Shown: positions 6,561-59,387, counted from the stretch's first letter. The stretch is 64,000 nucleotides of DNA from a virus (IMGVR_UViG_3300037089_000506); one strand, 5' to 3'. The notes: generated by a model from the letters alone, not told the origin. A program made the numbers and translations.

Positions 6561-6839
6561 TCATTAGTAATTCTTTTACATTTTTAACATTATACTGTCT
6601 AAAATAAGGCATCAATTCATATTGTTGCTTTTGATACAGGGGGTCAAAACTTCCTGTATTTTTTTTTATCTCTTCATTTTCTTTATCTTCTTTTTGTAGT
6701 TGTGAATAGAACCATGCTAAATGTTCTGGGCATAGTATGCTTTTAGCATACTTAAACTTATAAGGTATTCTATCTATATCTGCTTTAGTTTTACATCTCA
6801 ATAGAACTAATAAATGAGCATAATACATTCCAGTGTACA

Positions 6840-7097
6840 TTAGAGTATACTTAAAATCCTCTGTTGACGAAGCTGATCCCATTCTTCTTCCTCAGTAAGG
6901 TTTTCATCCTCATTGATTATACTTTCAGTCATAGGAGGAGCATCAGGAGGGGAAGAAGCACCAGGGGGAGAAGCACCCTCTCCCTCAGAAGTATCCCTTA
7001 CTTCTTGAGCTTCCAATCCTGTTCCCATAGATTCAGTTCCCATATCAGGAGCATCCATTGAAACATCTTCCTCAAATTCAAATTGATTAAAATTCAT
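6840..7097 (-). CDS. small acidic Pro-rich protein
   Basis: GAGG SD and an ACTAAAT motif upstream at 7111-7117. Confidence 0.5.
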   Translation of the reverse strand: MNFNQFEFEEDVSMDAPDMGTESMGTGLEAQEVRDTSEGEGASPPGASSPPDAPPMTESIINEDENLTEEEEWDQLRQQRILSIL

Positions 7098-7165
7098 GCT
7101 AACCTCTCTTATTTAGTCTATATACTCCAAGTGTATTCCACTTTTTTCTTTTGGCTGAGGTAATT

Positions 7166-9052
7166 TTATATTAAACTGCATGATCCCCCAGCACAAGCTA
7201 TCTCTCCCCTTTGATTGGTTCCATCCTCAACTTCAGATACTTGGTTTATGTCAAAATTTCCTATTTTGGAATAGAGTTTATTATACTCTTCCTCTGTGCA
7301 TTCAGTGAAAGGAGCCTGATTATAGCTACCATTATCATAGGGTATAACAGCAATACCATTATAGTAATCTTTATTTTCCCACATCCATTTTCCCACAGAC
7401 TCCCATTCATCATCTTTTACAGAAACAGTTATTGATACATTATTTAGATTAGAGCCCTTTCTATGGCCAGGCCTAATCCAATCCTCATGAATAATCTTCA
7501 TTCGTTCTAATAAATCAAAAGGAGATTCATTTCTGAATACACTACCTTCAGGTGCCTTAATTGGAAACTTAAGTAAAGATTGATTAGATTTTACTAAATC
7601 ATCTTCAACTAAAACAGGATTATTGACATTCATATATTGATAAATAGCTTCGTTTTTTCCAGCTATAATTCTACGAATATAAAAAGGTGAGTGCCATGCA
7701 TGAATACCGGAGGATGTTCCTAGAACTGAAGAAGTTGTTCCCTCTGGTTTTACACAGGTAGTTCTAGCAGCTTTATTTATTCCTATTAATTTAGCTATAC
7801 GGGCATTCTCTTTTAAAATAATTTCAGCCCCTTGCTGTCTATCAATATTCTTCATAAACCCATTGGAAGCAATTCCTGTCATTGAGACTCCAATTAATGC
7901 CTCTTTTTCTGTAGTTTCTCTCCAACAATCCCTAAGATAATGAAAATCAGTATACCCTGCTTGTATGGTTCCTATAAAAGCTGCTGCCCTACAACGATTA
8001 TTAAAATCTTCTTGAGTTATAATATCTCCTGCATTCATCGTAGTTACATTACAGAATTGATTAGCCCGAAGTCCAATTTCAACACAAGGATTACACCCCC
8101 AATCTTTATCATTAGTAAAATAAACCCCAGGTTCACCACTATGAGCTAGTTCTGCTATTTTCCACAGAGCAAAAAAATCTTCTTTGGTTACTTTATGTCT
8201 TACTATAACAGCAGAATTATTAGCCCTACCCCGTTGTGGATTCAGTTCTGACCAGTTACCATATTTAGCTGTAAGCATCTCCTCATCATCAAGATTAAAT
8301 AATGAAATCATTGCAGCCCTGCGAATACCACCAGAAAGAACAGCGTCTGCAATATGACATTGAATATCATGAACCTCTATAGGTTTTAATTTTGTATTAT
8401 TACCTCTATCTTGGATAGCATTATCTAATATTTTTCTAATATTATGAACACAGTCTTTAAGAGGTTGAGGACCAGGAGCTTTACCACCTGAGGTAACTAA
8501 TCTAGCGCCCTTTGACCTAATATCCCTATAATCGAATTCTATCTCTCTGGTACCCTCAAAGTAGGATTTCATTAGCATTTTTATTGTATCTGCCCATCCT
8601 GTAATGTCATCTGTAATAAGAAATCGTTTTCGTCTCTCCTGTCCTTTTATCTTTATATCCCCACGTAAAGCAGGTAATTTGTCTATATGATGCTTCTGTA
8701 CTGAATACCCTACACCTGTTCCTCCTAAAAGTAGAAACATAGTTTCATTAAAAGCTTCAACAGCGTCCATAGGTAAATAACAACAATTATACATTCTATT
8801 AGGGCTCAATTCTATTGGCTTTCCAGCAAATTGTAATGCCCTCATTGAAGGCAATACCTTTTTTTCATATACAAGCTTAAATACTTCCCTAATTTCTTCT
8901 TCTAAAAGTGGGTACTTTCTAATATGCATATCCACATTCCTAGATACAATCTCTTCCCAGTTTTCTCTTCTTCCTTTTTCTGGTAAATACTTAGCATATT
9001 TCATATGTACAATAATATCAGAAAATATATCTTTAGACCTATCTTCGCTCAT
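7166..9052 (-). CDS. nrdJ: class II (adenosylcobalamin-dependent) ribonucleotide reductase, monomeric RTPR type
   Basis: MYNCCY, GCNPCVEI (thiyl-radical Cys), TTCVKPEGTTS, C-terminal ACAGGSC redox pair. Confidence 0.92.
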   Translation of the reverse strand: MSEDRSKDIFSDIIVHMKYAKYLPEKGRRENWEEIVSRNVDMHIRKYPLLEEEIREVFKLVYEKKVLPSMRALQFAGKPIELSPNRMYNCCYLPMDAVEAFNETMFLLLGGTGVGYSVQKHHIDKLPALRGDIKIKGQERRKRFLITDDITGWADTIKMLMKSYFEGTREIEFDYRDIRSKGARLVTSGGKAPGPQPLKDCVHNIRKILDNAIQDRGNNTKLKPIEVHDIQCHIADAVLSGGIRRAAMISLFNLDDEEMLTAKYGNWSELNPQRGRANNSAVIVRHKVTKEDFFALWKIAELAHSGEPGVYFTNDKDWGCNPCVEIGLRANQFCNVTTMNAGDIITQEDFNNRCRAAAFIGTIQAGYTDFHYLRDCWRETTEKEALIGVSMTGIASNGFMKNIDRQQGAEIILKENARIAKLIGINKAARTTCVKPEGTTSSVLGTSSGIHAWHSPFYIRRIIAGKNEAIYQYMNVNNPVLVEDDLVKSNQSLLKFPIKAPEGSVFRNESPFDLLERMKIIHEDWIRPGHRKGSNLNNVSITVSVKDDEWESVGKWMWENKDYYNGIAVIPYDNGSYNQAPFTECTEEEYNKLYSKIGNFDINQVSEVEDGTNQRGEIACAGGSCSLI

Positions 9053-9061
9053 GAGACTCCC

Positions 9062-9301
9062 TTATATATTATAATTTTTTGTTATTAATGATTTTTTGAA
9101 CTTTCTATATTGTGCCATAAAAGGCTCTAATTTCTTCTCAAAGTCCTCCACTATGGCTATTACTTCTTTCTGCTTTTCCTCAGATAAATCGTGTAAAGAT
9201 ATCCCCTCTATATAATTATCATCTTCTTTTATTGCTATAACTTTGTAATCTTTACTATATTTCTCCTTCTCTTTATAATACTGAAATTCTTTTATCTTCA
9301 T
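9062..9301 (-). CDS. hypothetical protein upstream of nrdJ
   Basis: ORF with an ACTAATT motif upstream; co-oriented with nrdJ. Confidence 0.55.
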   Translation of the reverse strand: MKIKEFQYYKEKEKYSKDYKVIAIKEDDNYIEGISLHDLSEEKQKEVIAIVEDFEKKLEPFMAQYRKFKKSLITKNYNI

Positions 9302-9335
9302 GTGAACCCCTTTTCTTACTAATTACATAGAATTA

Positions 9336-10267
9336 GTGGAGATACATAGAGTGTACTACGAAGGTGTAATAGAAGTCAATAGGAATGAAATAGACATCAA
9401 TCTTCAGGCTGAAGATGATGTACCAGAATATGATATTCAGATGAATAATGAGCCTGATACATTAGAAAAGTTTATGAGAGTGATAAAACCAGAATTTGCT
9501 CCCGATGAGCCCCCTGAGGCACCTGATGCTTATGCTCAAAAACTGCGAAAACAGGGCTATGGTTCTTTTTACACTTCTCAAACTAATATAAACGACTTGG
9601 TTAATCTCTATGCTACTACTGAGCCTAAAGACTTATATGGTTTTCCAGGTATTGAGGGCCCTCGTGAAAATGGGGATATAGTCTTTATTGAGACTATAAA
9701 AAACTTTAGTGGTGTAATAAATGAGAAAATACTAAAGAATAAAACAGTCCAATTTAGATACAGAGGAGTACTATAATGTCCGATGAAATAAATGATCCTA
9801 CAGTAATGAAACCCTATGAAACATATTCAGATGAAGATGATAATCAACAAGATACTAATTCTGGATATCTAAAAATACTCTTTAACGATTATAAAACTAA
9901 AATACATTCAGCAGTTATCTATCTTGAGAAGATAAAGAGTCAAGGGGAAATACTGGATAAAACAGTTCATGAATGGACATCTACACTCCATAATAAATAT
10001 GAAGTATTAAATAAATTTCAACAGTCTCGTCCTCGAACTACAGTTCCAGGAGACTTCAATTTAGAAGACCGTTCACCTGCTATGACTAATACTGATGATG
10101 ATTTAAAATCTATTGATACTAAAATAACTGACCATTCAGAACAAATAAATTATAGTTTTGAAAAGTTAGAAAAATATTTAGAATTCTTAGGTACTACATT
10201 TTTAGATGCCCAGGATACCATCAATAAAATTTATGATAGGTATATGGAAATCTTTGAGAATATGTAA
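9336..10267 (+). CDS. two hypothetical proteins (9336..9776, 9776..10267)
   Basis: TAATG-coupled; ACTAATT motif at 9318. Confidence 0.55.
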
Positions 10268-10433
10268 TTACTTTCTCCAGTAAATATAATCTGTATTCCA
10301 ACCTGTAAAGGGTAGTACATAAATAATTGTCCACCCTACTTGCTTAGTATCCTCCATTACTCTTGCTAGTCTAATAAACAGAAACTGTAATAAAAAATAA
10401 TTTAAATAAAATAAAGGCTTATGTATTTTCATC

Positions 10434-10637
10434 TTATAGTCCCCCTACATTCCAGCCAGTCTTAATATCCTCTTCTGTTTTTATATCTTCATATATCTTC
10501 ACTATTTTCCATTTACCTTGTGAATCCTTCAATTGAACTATATTCCCTTCTTTTAATTTTCTATCTAATTTAATCCATCCTATAGTCCATGCATTATCCT
10601 TTACACGCCTGAACTCAGCTTGCTTGTATTCAGCCAT
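10434..10637 (-). CDS. small hypothetical protein (SH3-like beta-barrel pattern)
   Basis: GGAG SD; WIKLD...KEGNIVQLKD...WKIVKIY. Confidence 0.5.
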   Translation of the reverse strand: MAEYKQAEFRRVKDNAWTIGWIKLDRKLKEGNIVQLKDSQGKWKIVKIYEDIKTEEDIKTGWNVGGL

Positions 10638-10835
10638 ATTTATTCTCCTGTATCTTCTAATATAAGCTTCCTTTAGTATCTCCAGTTGGAATGATGAATA
10701 CTATATCTCTTCTGGAGTTTTAGCTTTCTATTTTCCCTTATTCTATGTTTCTCTTTCAAAGCATAGTAAGGTTCATATATTCTATTAAAATCATCAGAAA
10801 CAATTATATCTTCTGTTCCCAAGAGCAATTGTAAT

Positions 10836-11489
10836 TTACTCATATATACTCCTCAAGTATTCATATCCTTCTACTATAAATTTGCCATAGATTTCATAAT
10901 TTGTCAAGGTCCCATACCAACCACAAGCAAAAGGATGATGAGCCTCAATCAATGCTAAACCTCTATCTGTAGTCATACCAAAATCTACAGCACCACAATA
11001 GTCTGAAGGAAACTGTATATCTAATTCAGGTGCTGCTTTATCTTCATGAGTATTACCTATATACCATGCTGCATACAAAAGTTTACCATTAATAACATAG
11101 TATCTCCATTCATCAATAAAAGTAATTATTTCTGAACATAAATATGGTGGCTTCTTCTTACCTCTATAAGTACTATCAGTAATTCTACCATCAAATCTCT
11201 TATACCTATCTGAGGGTTTAATAAATACCTTTTCACCTAAAGGCCATTTATCTGTTTCCCATACTTTTCTTTTTACCCAAGAAAATAAAAAGGAAGGAAA
11301 TGTGTCTGGTTTTATTTCCCATCCTGTTACTTTTAGAAACCATTCTACGGTTCCTACAGGTATATAATCTTTAGGGACTTCTTGTGCTCTTACTCTAATA
11401 CAAGGGATATGATTCATTGCAGCGTAAAGAACTATTGCTTTCTCCTCTATATTAGAGTTAGCACCTAGAGCGAAGCCTTTTACTTCCAT
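10836..11489 (-). CDS. ATP-grasp domain protein (DUF4343/R2K-like)
   Basis: KVFIKPS..K.FDG, EWRYYVINGKLL, AVDFG...ALIEAH...GWYG. Confidence 0.75.
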   Translation of the reverse strand: MEVKGFALGANSNIEEKAIVLYAAMNHIPCIRVRAQEVPKDYIPVGTVEWFLKVTGWEIKPDTFPSFLFSWVKRKVWETDKWPLGEKVFIKPSDRYKRFDGRITDSTYRGKKKPPYLCSEIITFIDEWRYYVINGKLLYAAWYIGNTHEDKAAPELDIQFPSDYCGAVDFGMTTDRGLALIEAHHPFACGWYGTLTNYEIYGKFIVEGYEYLRSIYE

Positions 11490-53021: not shown

Positions 53022-54095
53022 ATGGATTATTTATTAAAACTCGGTGTTGTTGTAGATAGCAGGCATTTACTTGATAAAGCCCAACCTACCTATGGGCCTA
53101 ACTATTTTCAAGTTAAGGTTCTACCTGATATGAATGATATTAATGACAAGGATGTTAATGGTAACTACTTACTTCCTCGTTATCCAAATTTCTTTAAAAA
53201 TAATGATATCTGTTATCAGCCTGGGGACCCGGTATGGTTAGTTTGTGATGATGATTACCATGTTGGGTTTATTTTAGGGCCAGCACAACCACCCGCAGGA
53301 GAGGATATAACCTCATTTATAGCATTAATAAATAATGCAGAACTTAATGCTGATATGGAGCAAAGTGCCATAAATGAAATTTCTATTCAAAAGCTATCAG
53401 ATACTTATATTACATTCAGTAATGTTTCTACTGGAACCGCAGGACAAATATATAATACAAATATAGTCTACCTTTATGGCTCTGACGGTTCTATCTATTG
53501 TACCAACGGTAATTTTACTCTCACTGTATCCTCAGTAGGGGATGTATATATGGGAGGAAAATCCGTTACACAATACATTAATGGTGACCATTCTTTAGAT
53601 GCTAATGGCAGTACTGAAAATTTATCTTCAAAACGAATAGATGCTTCAGGTATGATTACCCTGAATTCGGGTGGAGGAATGTCCTTGGTTACGGGAGCTT
53701 CACCTTTATCTATACATACATCAGGGGATTTTGATTCTATTGTAGGAAAGACATATAATGAAACAGTGGTTGGTAGTTGTCATAGAACAGTTATGTTAGG
53801 CACAGACGCACAACAAGTATTAGCAGGGAGTTATACTATAGCAGTTCAAGCAGGAGTAATAACATTAGCCTGTAGTGGGCCTCTGACTATTGCATCTCCA
53901 ACTTCAATAGCCCTGGAAACCCTTGTATTAGATTTATCCAAATGCGATACCATTATTCTCCCTACAAACCCTTTACAGGGATTTGCTACAGGGGTTCCTC
54001 CCGGAACTTCTCCTATTGGTTTTATGGCATCTCTCACCCCTGGAGTGGGGGCAGGTACTGCTGTAGCAACATTGGAAGAATCTATGGCATTATAA
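53022..54095 (+). CDS. baseplate central spike (gp5/VgrG-like OB-fold + beta-helix)
   Basis: LGVVVDS...QVKVLP...YQPGDPVW...GFILG, followed by repetitive beta-strand segments. Confidence 0.65.
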   Translation: MDYLLKLGVVVDSRHLLDKAQPTYGPNYFQVKVLPDMNDINDKDVNGNYLLPRYPNFFKNNDICYQPGDPVWLVCDDDYHVGFILGPAQPPAGEDITSFIALINNAELNADMEQSAINEISIQKLSDTYITFSNVSTGTAGQIYNTNIVYLYGSDGSIYCTNGNFTLTVSSVGDVYMGGKSVTQYINGDHSLDANGSTENLSSKRIDASGMITLNSGGGMSLVTGASPLSIHTSGDFDSIVGKTYNETVVGSCHRTVMLGTDAQQVLAGSYTIAVQAGVITLACSGPLTIASPTSIALETLVLDLSKCDTIILPTNPLQGFATGVPPGTSPIGFMASLTPGVGAGTAVATLEESMAL

Positions 54096-54103
54096 GGTAT
54101 ACT

Positions 54104-55147
54104 ATGGCATTAGATTTAACCGGATCATTATTAGGCACTATTATAGCCAATAATTTATCTAAAAATACTACATCCTCTTCGTCAGCACAACAATACTGGA
54201 CTCTCGTATGTAATAGTCTCCTTAACTATATACAAAGTTATTTTCCTTCTACCTACCCTTCAGATACATTATCGGTTACTAATAATATTTATTGTGGTGG
54301 TAGCTATTATGGTAATGGGAGTGGTTTGACTTCTGTAAATGCTACTACTGCAACTATTACTGCTGATGTTTCTGCTACTACGTATTATCCTTATTTTGGT
54401 GGTGCTACCGCAAATCAATCGTTGAAATCCTCTACTAATTTATCATATGTTCCCTCTACTGGAACTTTATCAGCAACAAACTTTGTTGGTGGTAGCTATT
54501 ATGGTAATGGGAGTGGTTTGACTTCTGTAAATGCTACTACTGCAACTATTACTGCTGATGTTTCTGGTACTACATATTATCCTTATTTTGGCGCTGCTAC
54601 AGCAAATCAGTCGTTGAAATCATCTGCGTATTTGACGTATACTCCATCAACATCATCCCTGTATGTAACAACTCAATACGGGTATCTTGGCATGGGCGGC
54701 GTATATGGTGGCCCTGGGGTTTCCCCGAATATAGCAATTGGTAATACTTTAACAGGTGTGACAAATGGTAATAAGTTTTTACGAGTAAACTACATAGGCG
54801 GATTGGAGGTTATCAACAGTGCGTACAGTGCTGTAATAGCCACACTTGATGATACAGGCAACATCTCAGCTACAGGTTCTTTTTATACTTATCAAGTGAC
54901 TGGAATTACTTCTGTTACTTGGGTAAACTGGTTTGCCCCTACAGCAGGGCAATCTGGATTTATAATTGCTGTGTCGTCTGCTGGTGTAAATAGATATGAT
55001 ATGTACTATTATGTAAACTGCACAGCAACGGTAACAGTAATACAAATAAATGGTGGTGATGGTACTGTTAGAGCATCAGGTAGCTATGTTCAATATGGTG
55101 GGATGGCCAGCAGCACTATGACTTATTCAGCGATAAGAATATCGTAA
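54104..55147 (+). CDS. tail fibre/receptor-binding protein (probable start MALDLTG)
   Basis: AAGG SD before ATG 54104; GGSYYGNGSGLT trimeric-fibre motifs; internal duplication. Confidence 0.6.
   Translation: MALDLTGSLLGTIIANNLSKNTTSSSSAQQYWTLVCNSLLNYIQSYFPSTYPSDTLSVTNNIYCGGSYYGNGSGLTSVNATTATITADVSATTYYPYFGGATANQSLKSSTNLSYVPSTGTLSATNFVGGSYYGNGSGLTSVNATTATITADVSGTTYYPYFGAATANQSLKSSAYLTYTPSTSSLYVTTQYGYLGMGGVYGGPGVSPNIAIGNTLTGVTNGNKFLRVNYIGGLEVINSAYSAVIATLDDTGNISATGSFYTYQVTGITSVTWVNWFAPTAGQSGFIIAVSSAGVNRYDMYYYVNCTATVTVIQINGGDGTVRASGSYVQYGGMASSTMTYSAIRIS
54295..54566 (+). repeat. 192-nt-period tandem duplication inside the fibre gene (80 nt identical)
   Basis: 54295-54374 is identical to 54487-54566, then continues imperfectly. 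Confidence 0.9.
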
Positions 55148-55155
55148 GGAGAATT

Positions 55156-56262
55156 ATGGATTTTATACCCGTTCCTATTACAGAGTTACTAATAACCTCA
55201 AAATGCAATATGAATTGCTCTTATTGCTTTGAAAAAGACAAGCCACAAAAAACTATAAGTAAAGGAATGATTGACGAGTTTCTGTTAAATTTACCCTCTA
55301 CAGGATTAATGGTATTTGGTGGTGAGCCCTTACTTGCTTTAGACGAGTTTGACTACCTCTATACGTCTATTCAGAAACTTGATATAAATGAAGATATAAA
55401 AGTTGATTTACTAAATTCCTTTACTAAAGATGCTCAACTAATAACAAATGGAACCCTAATAATAAAGAATATAAATATCATCAAAAGACTAAACCTAAAG
55501 TTACAGATAAGTATAGATGGACCTGAGGAAATAAATGATTTATGTAGGGTGGACCATAAAGGAAAAGGTACATACAGTACAGTGATAAGAAACATAAAGT
55601 GCTGTATTGCTAATGATATTCCTTGGAGTTGCCATGGTGCTATAGGAAGAAATAATTTTTCTAATCTTTCAAAGTTATTTGATTTTTGGTGGGAAATCTG
55701 TAAATTAGAAGCAAAGGGTGATTTAGATAAAAGTATTGGAATGCTAGGGGAGAATACATTCCAAATAATATTTGAGGAGAATTATACTGATGATGATATA
55801 GACATATTTTTACGAGAACAAGAGGAAATATTTAATAAAATTTTTTTATTGCCAGAACTAAATCAGCAACAAAAGATTACTTTAGCTAATAATTGGTATA
55901 AAAGAAAAGGAGCGGTTTGTACCGCTGGACATTTTATGTATGCATATAATCTAGAGGGAGAATTGTTTCCTTGTCATAGACTAGCAATGATAGCAGATAA
56001 AAGCAACTATAATTTTTTTGAAAGAGGGCCTAAGTTCTTTAATGCCTTTCTTAATATGGGGAAAAATAAGAAGATGTATTCCAGTACGCAGAATATACTC
56101 GATTATAATAATAGTAATAATAAATACTATCAGCAAAATTGGTGTCCTTCTACTAATGTGCAGACATCAGGAACCCCCTATTACCAATCCTGTAAATATA
56201 ATGTACTTATAGCAGAGTATGGTAGGTTTGTAGATGCTTTATTTGAGTATGCCCATATTTAA
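55156..56262 (+). CDS. radical SAM enzyme with a SPASM-like C-terminus (peptide-maturase type)
   Basis: CNMNCSYC, FGGEPLL, TNGTL, ISIDGP, CTAG...GELFPCH...WCPSTN...SC. Confidence 0.9.
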   Translation: MDFIPVPITELLITSKCNMNCSYCFEKDKPQKTISKGMIDEFLLNLPSTGLMVFGGEPLLALDEFDYLYTSIQKLDINEDIKVDLLNSFTKDAQLITNGTLIIKNINIIKRLNLKLQISIDGPEEINDLCRVDHKGKGTYSTVIRNIKCCIANDIPWSCHGAIGRNNFSNLSKLFDFWWEICKLEAKGDLDKSIGMLGENTFQIIFEENYTDDDIDIFLREQEEIFNKIFLLPELNQQQKITLANNWYKRKGAVCTAGHFMYAYNLEGELFPCHRLAMIADKSNYNFFERGPKFFNAFLNMGKNKKMYSSTQNILDYNNSNNKYYQQNWCPSTNVQTSGTPYYQSCKYNVLIAEYGRFVDALFEYAHI

Positions 56263-56274
56263 TAGGAGAAAGTA

Positions 56275-56913
56275 ATGCCAACTATTGCAAATCCAGTAAC
56301 ACAGACTAATATAGTTACTGATTCAGATATTAGTGCTATTATTGTTGCTATAAACTCATTAATCACTTCGAGAAGCGCAGGTTCTGCGGTGGGAGCGCCT
56401 TCTCAGTATACTAAAATATATGGAAGCCTACCCCAAGGAATAATTACACAAGAGAATACATTAAATTCTACTCACACATGGCCTGGATTAATCAATCCTA
56501 ATGGGTATGGAACTTTAGTTCATTCTAATATAGGTACAAATCTTAGTTTAACTGCTGCTAGTGGTAATTTTAATTCTGGTGTAACTCTGCAAGCTTCTAC
56601 AATGAATGCTATTGTAAATGATATTAATAGTTTATATAATCAATGTGCATGTAATGTAGTAACCTCTAATTATTCTACGTGTAGTTCATACTCATGTACA
56701 GCACATGCTTGTGCGTGCAATGTAAAATGCGCAAATGGGTATTCCTGTACATGTTATACTTATGATATCGGGCATGGGGATCAGTGCGTGTGCCATGGGA
56801 CTAATTGTTGTAACTATAATGGGTGTACCCATGTTACTTGTACTTGTGACTATGTGTGTAGTGCTCAAAATACTTGCAGTTGTAATAATCAATGTGTATG
56901 TGAGTATAACTAA
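56275..56913 (+). CDS. fibre-like protein with a Cys-rich C-terminus (21 Cys, 7 CxC); candidate radical SAM substrate
   Basis: Cys counted directly from the translation; Asn/Thr/Ser-rich N-terminal half. Confidence 0.75.
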   Translation: MPTIANPVTQTNIVTDSDISAIIVAINSLITSRSAGSAVGAPSQYTKIYGSLPQGIITQENTLNSTHTWPGLINPNGYGTLVHSNIGTNLSLTAASGNFNSGVTLQASTMNAIVNDINSLYNQCACNVVTSNYSTCSSYSCTAHACACNVKCANGYSCTCYTYDIGHGDQCVCHGTNCCNYNGCTHVTCTCDYVCSAQNTCSCNNQCVCEYN

Positions 56914-57719
56914 TGAAAATAGCTATAGTAACACGTACTCATAATAGGCCATTATTATTACCACGATGCTTACGGAGTATAGATAAACAGGCATATACTA
57001 AATATATCCATATTGTAATATCAAGTAGTAATAATTATGATCAAGATTACTCCTTATGCACGATGCCCTATAATCCTAGAAGAACTATATTAAAAAGTAA
57101 AGAAAATAATTTAGGAATGATGTTAAACCAAGCATTAGAAGTAGCCAAGGACCATAAGTGTGATCTATTTTCTATTCTTGACGATGATGATGAATATGTG
57201 TCTGATAGATTAGAAAAGATAGTAAGGGCATATACTACTGCAAATACCCATGGAATTTCTTGCTTACAGATGACTATAAAAGAGAAGATTATAGATACTT
57301 CTATTATTGAAACCTTTAGGTGGAGACAAAAATTAGATACTTTTAGTATAGTTCCTTATAATGATAAAAATTATAGAAATCCAGGACAATTTACTTATGA
57401 TAACTATGCTTTAGATGTATGTAAAGAGTACCCACCAGAGAGCATTAGCCCCGAACACTACTTTTTACGAAAATTTATGGAGAACAATGCTATTGCTATT
57501 TGCCCTGAATATTTGTTTAGATATCATATAAGAGAGAACGATAAGCCTGGAGAGGGAGAATTACCCAACCTAAATACTATCACCTATGATAATAATATAT
57601 CCCATATACACCGTGATATGGAAATAAGTCAATTGATATCCATAGCTCAATCTGAGAAAAATAATGGGCTTATTTCTTATTTTACTAACTTGTTAGAGGA
57701 AACAAAAAATGATATATAG
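56913..57719 (+). CDS. glycosyltransferase family 2-like (GT-A)
   Basis: IAIVTRTHNRPLLLPRCLRSI, ILDDDD. Confidence 0.8.
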   Translation: MKIAIVTRTHNRPLLLPRCLRSIDKQAYTKYIHIVISSSNNYDQDYSLCTMPYNPRRTILKSKENNLGMMLNQALEVAKDHKCDLFSILDDDDEYVSDRLEKIVRAYTTANTHGISCLQMTIKEKIIDTSIIETFRWRQKLDTFSIVPYNDKNYRNPGQFTYDNYALDVCKEYPPESISPEHYFLRKFMENNAIAICPEYLFRYHIRENDKPGEGELPNLNTITYDNNISHIHRDMEISQLISIAQSEKNNGLISYFTNLLEETKNDI

Positions 57720-58611
57720 TAACAATAATTTTGCATATAATCGAAAATATTTTATTAAAGATTTATTCAATCCTCGGGAAATATTTTCTCATTTTAGCCA
57801 GATAACCTTTTCCAATTTCTTGTCTTTTTATAAGTTTTTAGAGAAAAGTCTGTTTACAATAAATCAAAAAGAGTATAAGATTCCTGTTAGCAACCGTAAT
57901 GAGTTACAGATGTTATTAAAAATTATTAGAGAAACGGATATTATTAAAAATAAAATAAATATACAGTTTTCCTCTAATTTATTAGAAGATATTGAAGAAC
58001 TTATAACGGATACTACTATATATTTATCTTCAGATAATAGTACATTACAAAATATAAAAGAAAAAGAAAATAATTATATTTATAATAATACTTTGTTTTG
58101 GACAGAATATATAATTACATCAGATAACTATGCTCAAGTATATAAGGATATGATAAAACTTTGTATTAAGCATCCTGTACTCAATTATATTGATCTAAAA
58201 ATAGATTATTCCTCTTTTGAGGATAAGCCTCTTTCTGAATTACACTCTTTATTCTTCTATCTTAGTTTACTTAAAAAATGGACAACAGAGCCACAGGCAG
58301 CTATGGGCAAGAATCAGAAAATGATAACACTCAAAAATTCTTTTGACCCCGTTAGATGCTATGTTAGCGAATCCCTAGATATACTTTTAGATAAGGACAC
58401 CCCCTATTTTTCTATGGGAAAATATCTAGATTTAAATGGAGAGGATGTTCCTTTGGAGGAACTTAATACAATAAGAAAACTAATAGATGTAAAGTTTGAA
58501 ACAGAATATAAAAATTGGTATTTAATTGATTTAGCCCAGAATCAAAAGGTTATGGAAGATATTTATGAAACTCCTTATCTTGCCAAGTTGGTTCAAAGTT
58601 GGCTATTGTAA
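57709..58611 (+). CDS. hypothetical protein in the modification cluster (possibly a degenerate radical-SAM-fold partner)
   Basis: Overlaps both neighbours; lacks CxxxCxxC. Confidence 0.45.
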   Translation: MIYSNNNFAYNRKYFIKDLFNPREIFSHFSQITFSNFLSFYKFLEKSLFTINQKEYKIPVSNRNELQMLLKIIRETDIIKNKINIQFSSNLLEDIEELITDTTIYLSSDNSTLQNIKEKENNYIYNNTLFWTEYIITSDNYAQVYKDMIKLCIKHPVLNYIDLKIDYSSFEDKPLSELHSLFFYLSLLKKWTTEPQAAMGKNQKMITLKNSFDPVRCYVSESLDILLDKDTPYFSMGKYLDLNGEDVPLEELNTIRKLIDVKFETEYKNWYLIDLAQNQKVMEDIYETPYLAKLVQSWLL

Positions 58612-59387
58612 TGGTTAATTTTGATATTGATATTACTTATGAGTGTAATTTATCTTGTAAGTATTGTAATAGATTATGCGGTACTAAATTTAATAAAAAT
58701 GATTTTATGTCTGTATCCCAGTTAGAAAAGTATATTGTTGCAGTTTTACCCCATATTTCTTCTGTATCAAGGATAAACATTCTTGGAGGGGAGCCTACAC
58801 TGCACCCTCAAATTTTTGAAGTTTTGGATTTATTAGTAAAAATACTAAGACCTAAACTATCTTTCCCTATGAATATTGTTTCAAATGGAGTAGGAGAAAG
58901 GGTAAATTCCATACTAGAAGAAATAAGAAAAAGATATAACACCTATGACAATTCACGATCTATAACAATGATTAATCCTTATAGTGTAGCAAAATCTAAT
59001 AAAGATTTTTGTATTGTTAGATCAAAATTTTATAATCAAAAAGTTGTAGAATCCAGGCATCACCCGAACTTACGGGGATTAATAGATTATAAAGATGATA
59101 TAAATATTGATTACTGTTGGGTACAAGATAATTGTGGATATAATATTTCCCCTTATGGGATTTATATATGTTCTATGGCTATAGCCATCTCTAGAATATT
59201 CAAATTAGGAGAAGGGCTGGATCATTTTCCTACTCCTGAAGAACTACTGAACCAAAAGAAAAAAATGTGTAAATATTGCCATATAAAATGTATACCCTTA
59301 CCCCCCTCCCCAGCTATATCCAAAAGTTTTGAAATAGCCATAGAAGAATGGGATAAAGACCCTTATTTTTTAAAGGTTTTAGAATAA
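58599..59387 (+). CDS. second radical SAM enzyme
   Basis: CNLSCKYC, ILGGEPTLHP, C-terminal CWVQDNCG...IC and CKYC. Confidence 0.88.
   Translation: MAIVMVNFDIDITYECNLSCKYCNRLCGTKFNKNDFMSVSQLEKYIVAVLPHISSVSRINILGGEPTLHPQIFEVLDLLVKILRPKLSFPMNIVSNGVGERVNSILEEIRKRYNTYDNSRSITMINPYSVAKSNKDFCIVRSKFYNQKVVESRHHPNLRGLIDYKDDINIDYCWVQDNCGYNISPYGIYICSMAIAISRIFKLGEGLDHFPTPEELLNQKKKMCKYCHIKCIPLPPSPAISKSFEIAIEEWDKDPYFLKVLE

Follow-up and report, generated by a model that had tools for sequence, protein, structure and literature searches.

A cysteine-repeat protein encoded beside a radical-SAM enzyme in a phage tail-fibre block: a candidate stapled virion component

Why does a phage encode, between a radical-SAM enzyme and a glycosyltransferase and downstream of a tail-fibre-like gene, a small protein in which almost a quarter of the C-terminal residues are cysteines? 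The gene in question lies in the window, i.e. the whole 64,000-nucleotide stretch of DNA analysed here, and its source is an uncultivated ~200-kb phage. The Cys-rich gene occupies positions 56275-56913 on the plus strand, from an ATG start to a TAA stop at 56911-56913, and codes for 212 amino acids. A ribosome binding site (AGGAG, 56264-56268, plus strand) was read off the sequence 6 nt 5′ of the ATG. The reading frame is genuine, since its Cys columns are kept in homologues of 31-44% identity. Our preferred answer, to which we give an even chance, is that the product is a virion component associated with the tail fibre and that radical-SAM chemistry staples its Cys tail through thioethers.

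Two-part architecture and cysteine motifs

The protein is bipartite, as the earlier note on this DNA had described it. Residues 1-123 (56275-56643, plus strand) contain no Cys and make up an N-domain, which is supported by the AF2 model, conserved family columns and hhalign. Residues 124-212 (56644-56910, plus strand) form the Cys-repeat tail with 21 Cys in 89 amino acids (23.6%). The Cys positions are 124, 126, 136, 141, 146, 148, 152, 158, 160, 171, 173, 178, 179, 184, 189, 191, 195, 201, 203, 207 and 209. Against a background of 1.25% Cys in the 30 other genes of the window, at least 21 Cys in 89 residues has a binomial P of ~7e-21. The seven CxC motifs counted in the earlier note are present, starting at residues 124, 146, 158, 171, 189, 201 and 207. 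Their proposed recurrence every 12-20 residues did not hold strictly, the gaps being 22, 12, 13, 18, 12 and 6. Taken alone, the window protein displays no enrichment of CxC over what its Cys density predicts (7 versus 4.7 expected, p=0.14). CxxC (0 versus 4.6) and CC (1 versus 4.7) are both depleted, CxCN is enriched, and CxxxC occurs three times (4.5 expected) with no tandem array of Cys at every fourth residue. Asn, Asp or Glu follows five of the seven CxC motifs, and all seven in the strain variant P0001. The tail is also rich in Tyr, Asn and Thr (8 Tyr, and 4 His). It closes with the motif CxCNxxCxCEYx defined by the family alignments (residues 201-212; 56875-56910, plus strand), so that the C-terminus reads CxCEYN, and Pfam detected no S74 domain in the protein. 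Searches of Pfam, PHROG and NCBIfam with the window protein returned no match.

An AF2 model calculated from a 13-sequence alignment predicts N-domain helices at residues 16-33, 51-65 and 107-122 (pLDDT 70-80), and the Cys tail was modelled at a pLDDT of about 30. The duplicated helix motif seen earlier (residues 21-29 and 112-120) was borne out: its first copy falls within helix 16-33 and its second within helix 107-122, both at columns conserved in the family. The N-domain columns that are invariant or nearly so are D18, I19, I22, I26, N27, R33, D116 and L120. The description of this part as a fibre-like N-terminus is not supported by its fold. It has no Pfam, PHROG or NCBIfam match, and fold searches with the small three-helix model returned generic helical matches only (best Z 7.4 among PDB representatives, best E 0.035 in BFVD); the family profile found no match among PDB sequences. 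As the fold searches yield nothing beyond generic helical arrangements, the N-terminus is not recognisably a fibre or collar domain. Although no profile of the fibre and collar families matched the N-terminal half, a homologue of the N-domain, P0022, bears a Peptidase_S74 domain. Comparison of the N-domain by hhalign gave 96.5% for P0022, 87% for the L005 protein and 75% for the L009 protein, the latter two from related phage loci described below.

The family of the window protein is rare, with about 15 clusters: 11 proteins came from an exhaustive HMMER search of 1.84 billion representatives and four more from a profile search. All members are metagenomic and none carries an informative name. 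They have in common the conserved N-domain, a Cys region whose length differs widely (14 to 58 Cys) and the conserved end CxCNxxCxCE[Y/F]x. In the family alignments C201, C207 and C209 never vary and C203 and E210 hardly do, and CxCE[Y/F] plus one or two residues terminates 13 of the 15 members. No DNA or protein match to the cassette or the Cys-rich protein was found among cultured phages (INPHARED), and the genome contigs searched contained no family member. IMG/VR scans with the window protein, P0007 and P0009 as queries gave no match, and the family alignment A1 was too variable for a pattern search. Fused or longer forms sought with the family profile were not found, a result of little weight.

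Motif counts were pooled over the 15 non-redundant members and compared with the expectation from shuffles. CxC was observed 133 times (80.6 ± 6.7 expected), CxxC 9 times (79.7 expected) and CC 18 times (81.5 expected). An excess was also found for the longer motifs CxC[NDE] (99 versus 16.8) and CxC[NDE]xxC (51 versus 3.8). Asn, Asp or Glu stands directly after 74% of the 133 CxC motifs (z about 21), [NDE]xxC is enriched as well (z 6.5), and successive Cys are alternately 2 residues (133 cases) and 4 residues (94 cases) apart. Because three quarters of the CxC motifs continue with one of these residues and the middle position is mostly Ser or Thr, the family unit can be written as a hexad, C-[ST]-C-[NDE]-x-x.

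The same counts bear on the possibility that the tail is not modified at all. It might be a Cys-rich fibre tip that forms disulfides after lysis or binds metal, with the radical-SAM enzymes and glycosyltransferases of the block acting instead on something else, for example a sugar or cofactor needed for glycosylation of the fibre, an explanation that we consider unlikely. Metallothioneins do contain CxC, which speaks for it. They combine CxC with CxxC and CC, however, and have few aromatic residues, whereas CxxC and CC are scarce in the family and the window tail is rich in Tyr, Asn and Thr. Moreover, the Cys count is odd in 10 of the 15 members, and the tail produced no metallothionein or zinc family match in Pfam even at E up to 10. 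Together with the conserved enzyme link, these properties disfavour the metallothionein-like tip that had been put forward as an alternative to a RiPP-like core.

Variation between closely related strains is concentrated in the tail. Among seven near-identical variants (at least 94% identity), 10 of 13 variable positions lie in the tail (binomial p=0.012), all of them within residues 154-186 (56734-56832, plus strand). All Cys are kept in the seven variants, and position 172 exists in four states. A diversity-generating retroelement was considered as the source of the variation and rejected, as the window of 64 kb contains neither a template-like repeat of the tail DNA nor a paralogue.

The adjacent radical-SAM enzyme and its gene block

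The gene of the radical-SAM enzyme rSAM1 (55156-56262, plus strand; Radical_SAM 49.5 bits) ends 12 nt before the Cys-rich gene. Its CxxxCxxC motif is located at residues 17-24, and with the radical-SAM motif beginning as early as residue 17 the enzyme has no N-terminal RRE. The best NCBIfam match is the ranthipeptide maturase PapB with 103 bits (cut-off 340), followed by DynA, GrrM, nif11, YhhB, QhpD (model TIGR03906, 54.5 bits; cut-off 453), anSME and the CXXX-repeat maturase. The best of these matches are all peptide or protein maturases, and every score is far under its cut-off. Only TIGR04115, the CXXX-repeat maturase model, aligned over the full length (residues 11-344, 52 bits). By sequence, the closest solved structures are ChlB, CteB and anSME, and CteB and anSME were also the top structures for the AF2 model, which is of moderate quality (pLDDT 61). 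A single match to rSAM1 was obtained in INPHARED, a fragment from one Enterococcus phage with 27% identity. Among genome contigs, weak N-terminal matches occurred in two Sphingobacteriaceae genomes, neither with a Cys-repeat neighbour.

The SPASM cysteine pattern CX2CX5CX3C is missing from rSAM1 and from its orthologue in locus L004 (L004:395-1489), and it is present in related phage enzymes. Beyond the SAM-cluster motif, the Cys residues conserved between the two are restricted to C130, C150, C255, C273 and C330. C255 and C273 are the first SPASM hairpin cysteines, and C330 is one later Cys. Consistently, the SPASM model TIGR04085 was listed for the enzyme of the related locus L002 and had no listed match for rSAM1. 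This pattern suggests that a reduced, twitch-like domain has replaced the full SPASM domain in rSAM1, probably with one auxiliary cluster.

The family scores far under the cut-offs, the lack of an RRE and the loss of most SPASM cysteines mean that the chemistry of rSAM1 could differ from that of its characterised relatives. The tail might thus be a radical-SAM substrate but acquire something other than thioether cross-links: formylglycine as introduced by anSME-like enzymes, sactionine-type alpha-thioethers, epimerised residues or another change of Cys, possibly with glycosylation by the GT2 enzyme. Like the unmodified tip, this appears improbable to us. The equal rank of anSME and CteB among the solved structures agrees with it, and without CX2CX5CX3C the auxiliary clusters would be unlike those of characterised ranthipeptide enzymes; three glycosyltransferase-like genes in the block fit the glycosylation part. 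On the other hand, the anSME target motif is absent, and the coupling of Cys to Asn, Asp or Glu at fixed offsets is a better fit to donor-acceptor pairs. Thioether stapling is the preferred chemistry, with the Cys tail very probably the substrate of the adjacent enzyme and rSAM1 its presumed maturase.

The surrounding block is preceded by replication genes and followed by a lysis-like gene. Upstream of rSAM1, a tail-fibre-like gene of 348 amino acids (54101-55147, plus strand) matches Pfam Chlorovi_GP_rpt with 29 bits (cut-off 27) and phrog_30299, annotated as 'tail fiber protein', with an E-value of 3.6e-5. Its product contains two long, near-identical internal repeats. This fibre may be glycosylated, as three glycosyltransferase-like genes follow shortly downstream. 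The preceding gene at 53022-54095 (plus strand), earlier called a spike, had no Pfam or PHROG match even at E up to 1.

Downstream, the start of a GT2 glycosyltransferase gene (56913-57719, plus strand; Glycos_transf_2 42.5 bits) overlaps the stop of the Cys-rich gene in the sequence TAATG. It is followed by a translationally coupled gene of 300 amino acids (57709-58611, plus strand) and by rSAM2, a shorter second radical-SAM enzyme (58599-59387, plus strand; Radical_SAM 40.8 bits). In a low-confidence Atlas model, the protein encoded between GT2 and rSAM2 had viral radical-SAM proteins as its nearest neighbours (TM 0.53); a 'pseudo-rSAM' cluster (TIGR04150) was also listed, with a TM of 0.41. 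It may be a pseudo-radical-SAM partner, since the model is radical-SAM-like, yet CxxxCxxC is absent. After rSAM2, a GT32-like gene and others are tightly packed or overlapping, and a GT4-like gene is also nearby. Promoter and terminator scans performed at chance level, so that operon boundaries could not be set.

These neighbours touch the second half of the unmodified-tip explanation, in which the enzymes serve a fibre glycan. The Chlorovirus glycoprotein repeat in the upstream fibre and the nearby GT2, GT32-like and GT4-like genes would suit such a role, as would the N-terminal part of rSAM2, which resembles viperin/MoaA-type small-molecule enzymes in NCBIfam. Against it, the maturase affinities of rSAM1 point to a peptide or protein target, and radical-SAM and Cys-repeat genes are also paired in loci without a glycosyltransferase.

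Locus L004, from a metagenome of the Trout Bog hypolimnion (bog lake), retains the order rSAM1, Cys-rich protein, second radical-SAM enzyme and GT2; in the window the order differs slightly, with GT2 preceding rSAM2. Synteny within the family proper rests on these two loci. Identity between them is 57% for rSAM1, 38% for GT2 and 31% for the Cys-rich protein. The presumed maturase is thus better conserved than its presumed substrate. rSAM2 and the second radical-SAM enzyme of L004 are weakly alike (27% over 74 amino acids).

Related cassettes and the tail-fibre connection

An IMG/VR scan with the rSAM1 alignment alone retrieved seven loci, and in five of the seven (L005-L009) the gene that comes next after the radical-SAM gene codes for a Cys-repeat protein. 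The earlier note had proposed a RiPP-like core carried by a virion-attachment domain. Its first half, the Cys tail as a radical-SAM substrate, is strengthened by this recurrent pairing and by the gene order kept in L004. The proteins of L005, L006, L007 and L009 combine a helical N-terminal part with CxCxCNY-type repeats, and the cassettes contain two to four radical-SAM genes each. In L006 (7125-7862 and 7892-8269) and L009 (7031-7579) the repeat units comprise 7-8 residues, e.g. CTCQCNYA. The relative in L006 has no match in the cultured-phage collection INPHARED. In L008, a 327-aa protein with a terminal CXXX-type Cys repeat (L008:7325-8308) is encoded directly 3′ of a radical-SAM gene of 459 amino acids; two further radical-SAM genes are found at 9298-11384. 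The radical-SAM ORF at L009:5977-6600 has 207 amino acids. As the tblastn match outruns this ORF and reaches position 6833, a frameshift or sequencing error is suggested.

Tail-fibre genes recur around these cassettes. PHROG tail-fibre genes are located immediately upstream in L007 and L009 and, with a weak match, in L005. In L001-L003, which belong to jumbo phages of 215-260 kb, the segment at 7026-8780 codes for a full SPASM radical-SAM enzyme and then two small proteins that each combine a helix with CQxCQxCQ repeats. The order is fibre, radical-SAM/SPASM, two small proteins, radical-SAM, fibre, and PHROG tail-fibre genes flank the cassette in L001 and L002. The 133-aa Cys-repeat protein of L002 was examined as a homologue and rejected: hhalign gave 7.9%, so homology is not detectable and the protein is analogous only.

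The best evidence that the architecture belongs to fibres is P0022. Here the homologous N-domain is joined to four copies of a CTCNCNY repeat, and the protein then runs into an intramolecular chaperone, Peptidase_S74. This S74 domain has matches among the virion structural proteins of Microcystis and Brucella phages that have been cultured. The Cys-repeat proteins of L006 and L009 stop 12-14 residues into the S74 opening motif (SDKRLK..I.Y). These ends look like a clipped remnant of the complete chaperone domain in P0022. A virion or tail-fibre role is supported only indirectly. Concerning the virion-attachment role put forward earlier, the fibre-like gene upstream, the fibre genes flanking related cassettes and the S74 domain of P0022 favour the role itself, and the fibre-like N-terminus on which it had partly been based is not supported by the fold searches.

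A radical-SAM gene next to a protein with a conserved 'leader' and a variable 'core' is equally the signature of a released RiPP. The protein might accordingly be the precursor of a bacteriocin or signalling peptide, from which a 123-aa leader is cut off and whose hypervariable Cys core is the active part. The concentration of strain variation in the core and the RiPP maturases among the closest enzyme families agree with such a product. The block, though, yielded no sign of a leader peptidase, a C39-ABC exporter or an immunity gene, and the N-domain is predicted by AF2 to be a folded, conserved three-helix domain. Moreover, the cassettes are located among tail-fibre genes, and in P0022 this architecture is joined to the S74 chaperone of tail fibres. 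We rate a released peptide as slightly less probable still than either the unmodified tip or a different radical-SAM chemistry.

Proposed function and comparison with known systems

Its place beside a dedicated radical-SAM gene within a tail-fibre block makes the Cys-rich protein probably a fibre part of the virion that is cross-linked by the radical-SAM enzyme. In the mechanism that we propose, the N-domain would serve as the assembly or attachment part and possibly also as the recognition handle of the enzyme; the helix that is always present ahead of the first Cys could be a recognition or assembly element. The tail would act as a scaffold of C-x-C-[N/D/E]-x-x-C units, which rSAM1, perhaps with rSAM2, might modify in the reducing cytoplasm before lysis. 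Stapling by rSAM1 is proposed because the family places Asn, Asp or Glu, the published acceptors, at set distances from Cys and shows an excess of [NDE]-x-x-C. In ranthipeptides the carbon that accepts the Cys sulfur, beta or gamma, is part of Asn (in NxxcA, motif N-x-x-C), of Asp (freyrasin, PapB) or of Thr, and QhpD forms Cys-Asp and Cys-Glu links within a protein subunit (PMC8326336). The likeliest chemistry would hence be beta- or gamma-thioether links from Cys to Asn, Asp or Glu, as made by NxxcB, PapB and QhpD. The product could be a redox-insensitive stapled module with strain-variable loops between the staples, which may contact the host. The co-conserved GT2 may glycosylate the Cys-rich protein or the fibre.

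A broader version of the proposal, which we put forward more tentatively and believe less probable than the stapled fibre protein itself, is that phages of anoxic habitats display variable loops on a host-contact module that is stapled by a phage radical-SAM enzyme and perhaps glycosylated. Were this true, the protein would be an enzymatically cross-linked virion adhesin, a maturation of the virus particle for which we found no description; our literature search turned up nothing on phage fibre or virion proteins modified by radical-SAM enzymes. Radical-SAM thioethers are known from small released peptides and one enzyme subunit (QhpC), and their use on a virion protein would add a new type of particle maturation. 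Covalent cross-linking of fibres in the reducing cytoplasm without disulfides, useful in anoxic habitats, would then be explained as well. The CxC[NDE]xxC hexad would then represent a new target motif for a reduced, twitch-like relative of SPASM maturases. The family provides a compact scaffold of ~90 amino acids, together with variable loops and its own enzyme, that is of interest to peptide and protein engineers; it is also relevant to reading host-range determinants in uncultivated phages.

Several known systems share parts of this arrangement. Compared with S74 tail fibres and tailspikes, P0022 has the N-domain and Cys repeats of the family plus a full S74 domain, which the window protein lacks. 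A functional analogy exists with the T4-type adhesin gp38, a small protein encoded after the fibre gene, in which N-terminal attachment is combined with a C-terminal scaffold of short repeats carrying hypervariable segments. The gp38 repeats are glycine-rich motifs and are not known to need a modifying enzyme, and PDB searches detected no match between gp38 and the Cys-rich protein in sequence or fold.

A precedent for radical-SAM thioethers that staple a protein subunit instead of a released peptide is QhpC/QhpD, the gamma subunit of quinohemoprotein amine dehydrogenase and its enzyme (PMC8326336). The present system differs in having many more Cys, a repeated unit and no quinone cofactor context, and rSAM1 scores far under the TIGR03906 cut-off.

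Ranthipeptides (NxxcA/NxxcB, freyrasin PapA/PapB and SCIFF CteA/CteB) are related through the enzyme, with PapB as the best family and CteB among the nearest structures. They are also similar in the substrate, where Asn, Asp or Glu is found at fixed offsets from the family Cys, including N-x-x-C as in NxxcA. In contrast to ranthipeptide and SCIFF precursors of about 45-60 amino acids, the Cys-rich protein has 212 and includes an N-domain folded in the AF2 model. rSAM1 contains neither an RRE nor the full SPASM domain with CX2CX5CX3C and two auxiliary clusters, and the genes belong to a phage tail-fibre block without export or cleavage genes.

The closest parallel is the CXXX-repeat system (target TIGR04114, maturase TIGR04115, PF27846), in which a Cys-repeat protein is likewise encoded beside a dedicated radical-SAM maturase; our literature search found no published experiment on it. 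The radical-SAM adjacency is found here with rSAM1 12 nt upstream and the pairing kept in L004, rSAM1 aligns with TIGR04115 over its full length, and the C-[NDE]-x-x-C half of the family unit corresponds to CXXX spacing. An ESM Atlas feature search, taken as a lead only, placed the protein closest to mostly viral clusters in which ~52% of the members carry PF27846 (score 0.89). The window protein did not match TIGR04114 (18 positions, 20-bit cut-off) or any other NCBIfam model at E<=0.01. Its family repeats the hexad CxC[NDE]xx, in which Cys residues stand 2 and 4 positions apart in turn instead of at every fourth residue. Furthermore, it possesses its own N-domain, a CxCE[Y/F]x end and a co-conserved GT2, and most SPASM cysteines are gone from rSAM1. 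A database family named 'radical SAM target CXXX repeat' already exists, and the cassette described here is distinguished from it by repeat grammar, N-domain, C-terminal motif, reduced maturase and GT2.
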